Part shown: positions 21,318 through 43,787 of the stretch, one piece after another
Position numbering within the stretch: position 1 is the stretch's first letter
Layout: each line of letters opens with the position of its first letter
Assembly: GCF_003334405.1 (NCBI RefSeq)
Contig: NZ_QOWM01000004.1
Reading direction: 5' to 3' (one strand)
DNA from: Escherichia coli
GTDB lineage: Bacteria; Pseudomonadota; Gammaproteobacteria; Enterobacterales; Enterobacteriaceae
Length of the DNA stretch: 64,000 bases
Made by a program: the position numbers and the translations under genes
Notes under the pieces: model-generated
What the model was told of the DNA's origin: nothing
The model's database searches: none
The model's input: the letters and a program-made list of their open reading frames with translations, nothing else

Positions 21318-22400
<1,083 letters not shown>

Positions 22401-37461: not shown

Positions 37462-38892
37462 ATGGCTGGGAATGTTCAGGAAAAACAGTTGCGATGGTAC
37501 AACATTGCGCTGATGTCTTTTATCACTGTCTGGGGTTTTGGCAACGTTGTTAATAACTATGCCAACCAGGGGCTGGTGGTTGTTTTTTCATGGGTGTTTA
37601 TCTTTGCACTCTATTTCACACCTTATGCGCTAATTGTTGGTCAGTTAGGCTCGACCTTCAAAGATGGGAAGGGCGGGGTCAGTACCTGGATTAAACACAC
37701 GATGGGACCCGGACTGGCTTATCTCGCCGCGTGGACCTACTGGGTGGTGCATATTCCCTATCTGGCACAAAAACCCCAGGCAATTCTGATTGCGCTCGGT
37801 TGGGCGATGAAAGGCGACGGTTCGCTAATCAAAGAATATTCAGTCGTAGCGTTACAGGGGTTAACGCTGGTGCTGTTTATCTTCTTTATGTGGGTTGCTT
37901 CACGCGGTATGAAATCGCTGAAAATCGTCGGTTCTGTGGCAGGGATTGCTATGTTTGTTATGTCGCTCCTGTATGTGGCGATGGCGGTAACCGCGCCTGC
38001 AATTACTGAAGTGCATATTGCGACCACAAACATTACCTGGGAAACGTTCATTCCTCATATCGACTTTACCTACATTACCACTATTTCAATGCTGGTTTTC
38101 GCGGTTGGCGGAGCAGAGAAGATTTCTCCTTACGTTAATCAAACGCGCAACCCAGGAAAAGAATTTCCAAAAGGGATGTTATGCCTGGCGGTGATGGTTG
38201 CGGTTTGTGCCATTCTGGGCTCGCTGGCGATGGGGATGATGTTTGATTCGCGTAATATCCCGGATGACTTAATGACCAACGGTCAGTATTACGCCTTTCA
38301 GAAGCTGGGCGAGTATTACAACATGGGTAATACTTTAATGGTGATTTACGCCATTGCGAATACCCTGGGACAAGTAGCGGCGCTGGTATTCTCGATTGAT
38401 GCCCCGCTTAAAGTGCTATTAGGTGATGCTGACAGCAAATATATTCCAGCCAGTTTATGTCGTACCAACGCTTCTGGTACGCCCGTTAATGGCTATTTTC
38501 TGACCCTGGTACTGGTGGCGATTCTGATTATGCTGCCGACTCTCGGCATTGGTGATATGAACAATCTCTATAAATGGCTGTTGAACCTTAATTCGGTAGT
38601 GATGCCGCTGCGTTATTTATGGGTATTTGTTGCATTTATTGCAGTCGTTCGCTTGGCGCAGAAATATAAACCAGAATATGTCTTTATTCGTAATAAGCCT
38701 CTGGCAATGACCGTCGGGATTTGGTGTTTTGCCTTTACCGCCTTTGCCTGTTTGACGGGGATCTTCCCGAAAATGGAAGCCTTCACTGCAGAGTGGACCT
38801 TCCAGTTGGCGCTGAATGTTGCAACGCCGTTTGTGCTGGTAGGATTAGGACTGATATTCCCGCTGCTGGCGCGTAAAGCGAATAGTAAATAA
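37462..38892 (+). CDS. ycaM: APC-superfamily amino-acid transporter (putative)
   Basis: ORF 37270..38892 trimmed to ATG at 37462 (MAGNVQEKQLRWYNIALMSF); polytopic membrane protein. Confidence 0.8.
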   Translation: MAGNVQEKQLRWYNIALMSFITVWGFGNVVNNYANQGLVVVFSWVFIFALYFTPYALIVGQLGSTFKDGKGGVSTWIKHTMGPGLAYLAAWTYWVVHIPYLAQKPQAILIALGWAMKGDGSLIKEYSVVALQGLTLVLFIFFMWVASRGMKSLKIVGSVAGIAMFVMSLLYVAMAVTAPAITEVHIATTNITWETFIPHIDFTYITTISMLVFAVGGAEKISPYVNQTRNPGKEFPKGMLCLAVMVAVCAILGSLAMGMMFDSRNIPDDLMTNGQYYAFQKLGEYYNMGNTLMVIYAIANTLGQVAALVFSIDAPLKVLLGDADSKYIPASLCRTNASGTPVNGYFLTLVLVAILIMLPTLGIGDMNNLYKWLLNLNSVVMPLRYLWVFVAFIAVVRLAQKYKPEYVFIRNKPLAMTVGIWCFAFTAFACLTGIFPKMEAFTAEWTFQLALNVATPFVLVGLGLIFPLLARKANSK

Positions 38893-39801
38893 TTATTGTG
38901 GTCGGTGACGCTGACTCTGGCAGATCTGACCCGTTTTTACATAATCGAGAAATGCGCGCAAGCCGCAGGACATATACTGGCGGTTTGGATAATAGATCTG
39001 GAAGCCTGGACGCTCTGTGCTCCAGTCTTCCAGTACACATTCTAAACGACCAGTATCAAGGTACTCCTTGATCTGTTCATAGAGCAGATACCCGATACCA
39101 GCACCCATCAAAACGGCCTCCAGTTCAGCATCAACATCATCCAGAATGATATTTCCTGCGACAGCAATTTCCAGCTCCTTTGCAAATTGCCAGTGGAAAG
39201 GTTTGCCGCTGGGATAACGAAAAACAACACATTGATGATTAAGCAGATCATGAGGATGGCGGGGTTTGCCATATCTTGCAAAGTACTCTGGCGTTGCTGC
39301 TACACATAATTTCACTGGCGGGCCGATCGCCACGCTGATCATATCTTTTTCGACGATGCAACTAAGTCGAACGCCAGCGTCAAAGCCCTGTTGGACGATA
39401 TCGACAAGAGAGTCGTCAGTTGTGAGCTCGACTTTAATATCAGGATATTCACGTGTGAAACCAACCAGTAAAGACATTAAAAATATACGTGCAGCTACCC
39501 GGGCGGCATTGATTTTGAGCGTTCCTGTCGGTGTCAGACGAAAATCATTCATCTCATCTAACATGATCTGAATTTCGTCGAAAGCTGGGCGCAATCGTTC
39601 ATAGAGATTAGAACCCGCTTCCGTTAACGATACGCTTCGGGTTGTCCGATTGAATAAGCGAATTTTAAGACGTTGTTCCAGTGTTTTAATACTATGGCTA
39701 ATGGCGGACGAGGATAAGCCTAACTCATCGCCCGCTGCACGAAAGCTTTGATTACGGGCCACGGCAAAGAAAGTGGCAAAGTCAGACATATTCATCCGCA
39801 T
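38893..39801 (-). CDS. ycaN: LysR-type transcriptional regulator
   Basis: 302-aa ORF; N-terminal HTH FRAAGDELGLSSSAISHSIKTLEQRL; divergent from ycaK. Confidence 0.82.
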   Translation of the reverse strand: MRMNMSDFATFFAVARNQSFRAAGDELGLSSSAISHSIKTLEQRLKIRLFNRTTRSVSLTEAGSNLYERLRPAFDEIQIMLDEMNDFRLTPTGTLKINAARVAARIFLMSLLVGFTREYPDIKVELTTDDSLVDIVQQGFDAGVRLSCIVEKDMISVAIGPPVKLCVAATPEYFARYGKPRHPHDLLNHQCVVFRYPSGKPFHWQFAKELEIAVAGNIILDDVDAELEAVLMGAGIGYLLYEQIKEYLDTGRLECVLEDWSTERPGFQIYYPNRQYMSCGLRAFLDYVKTGQICQSQRHRPQ

Positions 39802-39813
39802 TAGTGAAAATCC

Positions 39814-39832
39814 TTCATTAACTCATCCTGAA
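39814..39832. promoter_or_regulatory. Candidate LysR-type (T-N11-A) box in the ycaN-ycaK divergent promoter region
   Basis: ttca-ttaactcatcc-tgaa: 4-bp inverted repeat around an 11-bp spacer, 13 bp upstream of the ycaN start and about 70 bp upstream of ycaK. Confidence 0.35.
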
Positions 39833-39900
39833 TCATCACGTTTACAGGATTATGCCGCCTGCGTAAAGTGCGCTCCAGAACTTAACGTGGAGGTAAAATT

Positions 39901-40491
39901 ATGCAGTCTGAACGTATTTATTTGGTATGGGCCCATCCTCGTCATGATTCATTGACCGCACATATTGCTGATGCGATCCATCAGCGGGCAATGGAGCGGA
40001 AAATACAGGTGACGGAACTCGATTTATATCGGCGTAATTTCAACCCAGTGATGACGCCGGAAGATGAACCAGACTGGAAGAATATGGATAAACGTTATTC
40101 TCCAGAGGTTCATCAGCTTTATTCAGAGCTGCTTGAACATGACACGTTAGTGGTGGTTTTTCCTCTCTGGTGGTACAGCTTCCCGGCAATGCTAAAAGGA
40201 TATATTGACAGAGTATGGAATAATGGGCTGGCTTATGGAGATGGGCACAAATTACCATTCAATAAAGTTCGTTGGGTGGCGCTGGTTGGAGGAGACAAAG
40301 AATCATTTGTCCAGATGGGCTGGGAAAAAAATATAAGCGATTATTTAAAAAATATGTGCAGTTATCTTGGTATTGAAGATGCCGATGTCACTTTCTTGTG
40401 TAATACAGTGGTATTCGATGGGGAAGAACTTCACGCGAGCTATTATCAGTCGTTATTATCTCAGGTACGGGATATGGTAGATGCACTATAA
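39901..40491 (+). CDS. ycaK: Flavodoxin-like NAD(P)H oxidoreductase (quinone reductase family, putative)
   Basis: 196-aa ORF MQSERIYLVWAHPRHDSLTAHI; divergent from the LysR-type ycaN. Confidence 0.8.
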   Translation: MQSERIYLVWAHPRHDSLTAHIADAIHQRAMERKIQVTELDLYRRNFNPVMTPEDEPDWKNMDKRYSPEVHQLYSELLEHDTLVVVFPLWWYSFPAMLKGYIDRVWNNGLAYGDGHKLPFNKVRWVALVGGDKESFVQMGWEKNISDYLKNMCSYLGIEDADVTFLCNTVVFDGEELHASYYQSLLSQVRDMVDAL

Positions 40492-40572
40492 GATGTGTTA
40501 AAAACGCTGTAGCAGAATGAAGCGCGGAATAAAAAAGCGGCAACTCAATAAAGTTGCCGCTTTACGGGGAAA

Positions 40573-41504: not shown

Positions 41505-43787
<2,283 letters not shown>

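Follow-up and report, generated by a model that had tools for sequence, protein, structure and literature searches.

A conserved dyad next to the ycaN start codon is the predicted operator of the divergent ycaN-ycaK gene pair of Escherichia coli

The divergent genes ycaN and ycaK of Escherichia coli probably form a self-contained cassette of regulator and target, in which the LysR-type protein YcaN would act on a conserved dyad located at 39801-39821, repressing its own gene and activating ycaK in a ligand-dependent fashion. We have analyzed a window of 64 kb (the whole stretch of DNA under study, to which all the coordinates refer) that corresponds to the ycaM-ycaN-ycaK-pflA-pflB region of E. 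coli K-12, with 100% identity to the K-12 records. The layout found there is that of a textbook LysR divergent module. The new part is the delimited operator, and the gain is one of annotation, not of concept. The features of the locus are given below with their coordinates and strand.

38893-39801, minus strand: ycaN, LysR-type transcriptional regulator of 302 aa (open reading frame and Pfam)
39801-39821, no strand: predicted YcaN recognition site (RBS), TTAGTGAA-N5-TTCATTAA, adjoining the ycaN start codon (dyad conservation)
39802-39900, no strand: divergent intergenic region of 99 bp, holding the predicted operator, the ycaK promoter and both ribosome-binding sites
39811-39815, minus strand: ycaN Shine-Dalgarno AAGGA, in the dyad spacer and 9 nt before the ATG (read from the sequence)
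39814-39832, no strand: TTCA-N11-TGAA box of the preliminary description, left arm in the conserved dyad, right arm specific to E. coli and Pseudocitrobacter
39825-39840, no strand: A/T-rich block between the dyad and the -35, candidate activation site (ABS) (partial column conservation)
39841-39846, plus strand: predicted ycaK -35, TTTACA (promoter scan; invariant in 12 orthologous sequences)
39849-39854, minus strand: tentative ycaN -10, CATAAT, within the 17 bp that separate the ycaK hexamers (ATTAT conserved in most orthologues)
39864-39869, plus strand: predicted ycaK -10, TAAAGT (promoter scan; invariant in 12 orthologous sequences)
39889-39893, plus strand: ycaK Shine-Dalgarno GGAGG, 7 nt before the ATG (read from the sequence)
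39901-40491, plus strand: ycaK, NAD(P)H (quinone) oxidoreductase of flavodoxin-like fold, 196 aa (open reading frame, Pfam and NCBIfam)

The K-12 records carry the annotations 'ycaN: LysR family transcriptional regulator' (from RefSeq) and 'ycaK: NAD(P)H oxidoreductase'. A preliminary description of this DNA had placed a LysR gene head-to-head with a flavodoxin-like gene across 99 bp, and the open reading frames, the Pfam and NCBIfam matches and the sequence itself agree exactly with this arrangement. YcaN has a LysR-type helix-turn-helix at its N-terminus (Pfam HTH_1, residues 7-63, E = 2e-20) and the LysR_substrate domain at its C-terminus (residues 91-290, E = 8e-33), within the ~300 aa length looked for in this family. 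Its top NCBIfam matches were to YafC (156 bits, cutoff 470) and AaeR (122 bits, cutoff 425), the nearest named LysR paralogues of E. coli. Both scores are far under the curated cutoffs, so that YcaN belongs to neither equivalog and is without a named one. Its relatives in the PDB are 3mz1, AphB and CrgA (3hhg, E = 3e-29), the last one homologous to YcaN over the full length. As for YcaK, it matches Pfam Flavodoxin_2 (4e-40) and the NCBIfam model NF007280 'NAD(P)H oxidoreductase', with 354 bits versus a cutoff of 162. The solved structures nearest to it are bacterial NADPH quinone reductases and mammalian NQO1 and NQO2, and as a member of this family it would carry out a flavin- and NAD(P)H-dependent two-electron reduction of quinones. 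Thus, YcaK resembles the NQO1/MdaB/KefF type in its domain and its nearest structures, but it has an equivalog model of its own and falls far below the cutoffs of KefF and KefG. Screening libraries have featured it as a candidate nitro-, quinone- or chromate-reductase (PMC3596305).

The pairing of both genes is conserved well beyond E. coli. The genome scan gave 11 orthologues that are 59-74% identical to YcaN (from Limnobaculum, a Caballeronia isolate, Rahnella, Cedecea, Serratia, two 'Enterobacter' isolates and Symbiopectobacterium), and all 11 had a divergent ycaK, with YcaK at 50-57% identity and a gap of ~101 bp. The orthologous intergenic regions in Gammaproteobacteria measured between 98 and 101 bp. 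Starting from the other gene the picture was the same: a divergent LysR gene was found at seven of eight YcaK homologues (45-67% identity; Gamma-, Alpha- and Betaproteobacteria), the exception being that of Edwardsiella, the most distant one at 43%. Five of these YcaK-linked LysR genes were 57-79% identical to YcaN. The genes flanking the pair differed between genera, and the orthologous loci held no conserved operon partner downstream of either ycaK or ycaN. Within E. coli the pair is accessory. At least 80% of the ycaN-ycaK locus was present in 3316 of 5426 complete genomes, and ~1060 were without any match. Many genomes of the species retain nothing of the pair but the final 111-113 bp of ycaN, and in them ycaM is almost directly joined to pflA, as exemplified by the joint loss of the two genes in E. 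coli O145:H28 RM13516 (locus L081, 4001-4111). That ycaN and ycaK are gained and lost together supports that they are a functional unit.

The intergenic regions of 14 lineages were aligned, comprising the loci of the YcaN orthologues and those of Pseudocitrobacter, Hafnia, Kluyvera, Pantoea and Gilliamella, reached by way of their YcaK homologues. The alignment consisted of sharply bounded conserved blocks, and downstream of the -10 it was saturated with substitutions and indels. The first block spans from the ycaN start codon through the dyad (39801-39821), a palindrome of 21 bp that reads TTAGTGAA-AATCC-TTCATTAA with its center at 39811. The arms are complementary at seven of their eight positions (P = 0.036 for shuffles with the same N5 spacer), and the core T39805-N11-A39817 is a strict T-N11-A. 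The TGAA and the TCA of the dyad were invariant in the 14 lineages, and the central spacer was less conserved than the arms. Besides, this was the sole good match in the 64 kb: allowing up to 3 mismatches, the surroundings of ycaC and ycaD were without any dyad-like site, and the rest of the window contained just two, both at 3 mismatches and in coding regions, one at 22071 and the other at 42015 inside pflB. For this site we infer binding by YcaN and autoregulation, together with the direction of regulation, the inducer and the transcription starts discussed below.

The position of the dyad relative to the ycaK promoter is also fixed. The scan gave one sigma-70-like promoter on the plus strand, TTTACA-17-TAAAGT (39841-39869), with 9 of 12 matches to the hexamers and a spacer within the 16-18 bp range. 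In the 14-lineage alignment the TT..CA of the -35 and the TA...T of the -10 were invariant, which are the positions that matter most for sigma-70, the spacer was always of 17 bp, and neither insertions nor deletions interrupted the stretch from the dyad through the -35 to the -10. The transcription start of ycaK implied by this prediction lies at ~39876, which puts the dyad center at ~-65, the canonical position of the LysR RBS (layout in PMC2724274). As a predicted site, therefore, TTAGTGAA-N5-TTCATTAA has the T-N11-A and the location near -65 of the divergent target that would be expected from a LysR operator. Further downstream, the orthologues show GAG/GGA-type purine runs at the place of the ycaK Shine-Dalgarno. 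The A/T-rich block at 39825-39840 retains conserved columns (A39825, T39826, A39831, A39832 and T39833), and the orthologue alignments revealed no clear conserved second dyad in it. By analogy with the canonical RBS/ABS layout of LysR proteins this block is a candidate ABS, although a poorly defined one. With regard to the promoter of ycaN, CATAAT (39849-39854) can be proposed as its -10 with low confidence, and no convincing -35 for this gene was found in the intergenic region. A published analysis was likewise without a clear ycaN promoter (PMC9308461).

The preliminary description had located the recognition site elsewhere, at an inverted repeat TTCA-N11-TGAA considered as the classic LysR-type architecture. 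The string, TTCATTAACTCATCCTGAA, is certainly there at 39814-39832, the exact pattern is rare, its left arm is conserved, and the complete repeat appears also in Pseudocitrobacter, the nearest lineage. It overlaps as well the place expected for an activation site. However, its geometry is A-N11-T (the outer pair being T-N17-A) and not T-N11-A, and strict T-N11-A pairs are not scarce, with six of them within the 99 bp. Some inverted repeat with 4-bp arms and a spacer of 11 appeared in 26.8% of the dinucleotide shuffles of the intergenic region, and in 74% when spacers of 9-13 were allowed, while the exact TTCA-N11-TGAA occurs twice in the window versus 1.2 expected. In the right arm, T39829 and G39830 were identical to E. 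coli in none of the 11 orthologous loci, and in the wider set in only one of the 13 other lineages (Pseudocitrobacter, the closest relative), the remaining 12 differing in spite of a conserved recognition helix in their regulator. In addition, the center of this repeat (39823) would fall at ~-53, not at -65. That TTCA-N11-TGAA is itself the recognition box of YcaN is thus very improbable. Judging from the alignment, a true arm (TTCA, 39814-39817) would have been joined to the wrong partner, its true one being the TGAA at 39805-39808.

Another palindrome, ATCCTG-N14-CAGGAT (39825-39830 and 39845-39850), overlaps the ycaK -35 and was seen in E. coli and Pseudocitrobacter only, the other lineages having TCTCAA...ACAGAA at this position. 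We considered it as a second conserved dyad (ABS) and discarded it, with P = 0.29 in shuffles with free spacer and Pseudocitrobacter as the only lineage sharing it. It seems rather to mark where the presumed activation-site region was rewritten in this lineage, a change that would also have created the TGAA of the box just described.

The location of the 39801-39821 dyad in the 5' leader of ycaN calls for a different explanation to be weighed, namely that it is conserved for the translation of ycaN, or as an RNA hairpin holding the Shine-Dalgarno, and not as DNA bound by a protein. Indeed the spacer holds the Shine-Dalgarno, the right arm meets the start codon and the minimum-free-energy fold pairs both arms. 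Nevertheless, the fold of the leader was no better than that of shuffled sequences (z = -0.26), the consensus RNA structure amounted to only -1.7 kcal/mol, and there was no covariation, compensatory changes being absent. Conservation is higher in the arms than in the spacer bearing the Shine-Dalgarno, and a translational role does not account for the fixed, indel-free distance from the dyad to the ycaK promoter. We have rejected this hairpin or translational role as extremely unlikely.

The genome scan with YcaN also gave 69 LysR genes at ~37-44% identity to YcaN (loci L012-L080), and their divergent partners were not ycaK but cupins (17), aldo/keto reductases (11), hydrolases (8), MFS transporters (7) and others. 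Many of these ~40% identical relatives have CATTCATGAA-N5-CTCATAAG immediately next to the start codon of the LysR gene itself. The exact TGA-N7-TCA was present in 15 of 68 of them, all at the identical offset, versus 0.55 expected, and at least 11 of 16 arm matches were found in 43 of 68 versus 2.8% of shuffles, 30 of the 43 again at the identical offset. Since the same type of dyad in the same register appears next to relatives with other partner genes, it goes with the regulator rather than with the ycaK promoter. Its type and its register are thus a property of the DNA-binding domain of this LysR clade, as would be expected of an operator proper to the regulator. The YcaK-linked regulators of Chelativorans and Burkholderia gladioli (L087 and L088) have a different recognition helix (...VSLSLKQLE...) and different half-sites, in the same register.

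The clade with CATTCATGAA-N5-CTCATAAG, ~40% identical to YcaN, spans Alpha-, Beta- and Gammaproteobacteria. A second conserved element, GATTnTA-N5-CTAATC, is found in it ~27 bp from the first. A broader and rather speculative reading, which we think doubtful, is that YcaN-YcaK represents a mobile sensor and detoxifier cassette, in which a LysR clade would carry its operator in fixed register against the start codon of the regulator, with the Shine-Dalgarno in the spacer, whatever the partner enzyme (cupin, aldo/keto reductase, hydrolase or quinone reductase). If this were true, the shared operator grammar would permit the prediction of targets and binding sites for dozens of orphan LysR regulators, and a family of quinone or electrophile sensors would be indicated.

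What is established about ycaN and ycaK is the identity of the genes, the conservation of their pairing, that of the dyad, of the promoter hexamers and of the spacing, and that the dyad tracks the regulator family. The mechanism that we propose for the cassette goes further. YcaN would sit on the conserved dyad, ~65 bp upstream of the ycaK start, and would be expected to make a second, weaker contact between the dyad and the -35. Upon binding a small-molecule ligand it would switch on ycaK, activation being the likeliest form of control. Its presence on the dyad would also repress its own gene, as suggested by the dyad lying in the ycaN leader beside the start codon. The inducer could plausibly be a quinone or an electrophile related to the substrate of YcaK, a guess that derives from the nature of the target enzyme and from the precedent of CrgA. 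A thiol switch was also considered for YcaN and discarded, as no cysteine is conserved across its orthologues.

The precedent is found in Neisseria meningitidis, where CrgA works through T-N11-A sites to activate mdaB, the divergent gene of a quinone reductase, and to repress itself (PMC2724274). In addition to the homology of the regulators, both systems share a LysR gene divergent from the gene of a flavodoxin-like quinone reductase, and a T-N11-A in a short intergenic region, placed on the promoter or leader of the regulator and near the -35 of the target. They differ in the target, which is MdaB and not YcaK, and in the footprint, that of CrgA (ACTTTATAATTTAAAAGTG...TCAAATGAAATAATCAGATG) being unlike the YcaN dyad; when it was compared with the ycaN-ycaK region no similarity was found. 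CrgA has two clear sites of 30 bp plus octamers, while the YcaN locus has one clear predicted dyad. In the CrgA-MdaB type two adjacent T-N11-A sites together span the regulator promoter and the -35 of the target; here, from the dyad to the -35, the region is partly conserved, with no clear second dyad. With the regulators of the canonical LysR operators (T-N11-A RBS at ~-65 and ABS at ~-35, as in CbnR, BenM and CysB) YcaN shares HTH_1, LysR_substrate and a divergent target, and its locus shares the palindromic T-N11-A ~65 bp upstream of the predicted start and an overlap of the site with the leader of the regulator that implies autoregulation. The differences are the ill-defined ABS, the near-consensus -35 of ycaK, and the fixed register of the site at the start codon in the YcaN clade, tighter than usually described.

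The near-consensus -35 is a point against activation, being unusual for an activator-dependent promoter, and leads to the alternative that YcaN is mainly a repressor of ycaK and of itself, released by the inducer. This would fit the invariance of both the -35 and the 17-bp spacer and the low expression of ycaN and ycaK in glucose M9, and in the CrgA model the uninduced complex does repress mdaB (PMC2724274). A dyad centered at -65, on the other hand, would not block RNA polymerase by itself, and most LysR proteins with this geometry are activators. There is also the indirect evidence that a ycaN knockout showed no visible derepression of ycaK (PMC9068703). We consider the repressor alternative unlikely and retain ligand-dependent activation as the preferred mode.

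LysR proteins are usually found on their RBS even without inducer, and hence a ChIP-exo peak at ycaN/ycaK would be expected. The experiment with chromosomally tagged YcaN-8myc in glucose M9 yielded six weak peaks (signal/noise of 1.1-4.5), and none of the six was at ycaN/ycaK (PMC8464067). However, the peaks at ynjB and yihQ coincide with peaks of other regulators and the one at ung/yfiD is beside another (MG1655 coordinates 1834142, 4066578 and 2714505, respectively; PMC8464067 Dataset S4), which suggests that these three are hyper-ChIPable loci and not sites specific for YcaN. Given these overlaps and the low expression of ycaN (base mean ~65), this data set may be uninformative. As to transcription, RNA-seq of a ycaN knockout at late-exponential phase in M9 plus threonine gave 702 differentially expressed genes, among which the authors highlight the neighbors ycaC, ycaD and focA without naming ycaK, the role predicted for YcaN being given as 'unknown' (PMC9068703). 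Neither experiment included any candidate inducer, for which reason they are only weak evidence against a link between YcaN and ycaK.

These data could nonetheless be taken to mean that in E. coli ycaK escapes control by YcaN and answers to others, for instance Nac or stress regulons, that YcaN acts on different genes (ycaC, ycaD, focA or distant ones) and that the adjacency of both is merely historical. Along these lines, ycaC and ycaD are named in the knockout paper, PycaC and PycaD figure again as the targets of YcaN in a 2024 review, the knockout paper cites an EcoCyc prediction of Nac control for ycaK (PMC9068703), the local ChIP-exo peak is missing (PMC8464067), and ycaK is upregulated together with many flavoprotein genes under lethal stress. 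But the strict co-inheritance and co-loss of the pair is difficult to conciliate with a historical adjacency, ycaC and ycaD have no dyad-like site nearby (see above), and the 702 genes of the late-exponential knockout look like indirect effects. Nac sites are of the ATA-N9-TAT type, and none is visible in the 99 bp. Altogether, control of ycaK by other regulators with YcaN acting elsewhere appears quite improbable. The preliminary description had made of YcaN the dedicated regulator of ycaK. That it is a local regulator of ycaK we regard as a strong prediction from comparative genomics, given the pairing, the co-loss and the conserved dyad ~65 bp upstream of the promoter start; the word 'dedicated' is not sustained by a ChIP-exo profile without a local peak and a knockout paper that does not list ycaK among the differentially expressed neighbors.

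YcaN is among the LysR regulators of E. coli K-12 that are still listed without function or effector, and the assignment of PycaC and PycaD as its targets in the literature rests on indirect evidence. A precise predicted operator (39801-39821) together with the ycaK promoter offers a direct way in which this assignment could be corrected. The predicted operator is also a starting point toward the inducer and hence toward the physiological substrate of the NQO1-like YcaK.

Some other aspects of the locus deserve mention. The convergent genes ycaM, on the plus strand, and ycaN, on the minus strand, meet at 38892/38893 with zero intergenic bases between their stop codons, and the pair ycaM-ycaN appears in a listing of convergent 'excludons', i.e., overlapping transcripts (PMC12288877). 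No known RNA family was detected in or near the intergenic region, the only hit being a sub-threshold snoRNA match inside ycaK. A RIL-seq-based study counts 'ycaK.3UTR' (40492-40572 in the window) as an RNA partner of AceK-int, a predicted small RNA (PMC8175672). Several E. coli strains carry IS1, IS5 or IS903 insertions in the ycaN-ycaK locus. Finally, the genes appear damaged in two of the other genomes: in Symbiopectobacterium 'North America' (L011) ycaN has 242 aa and ycaK 132 aa, truncated or split, and in a Hafnia Logan assembly (L083) the LysR gene is split into open reading frames of 123 and 159 aa. Both look like recent pseudogenization, since the dyad and the promoter of the intergenic region are still intact.
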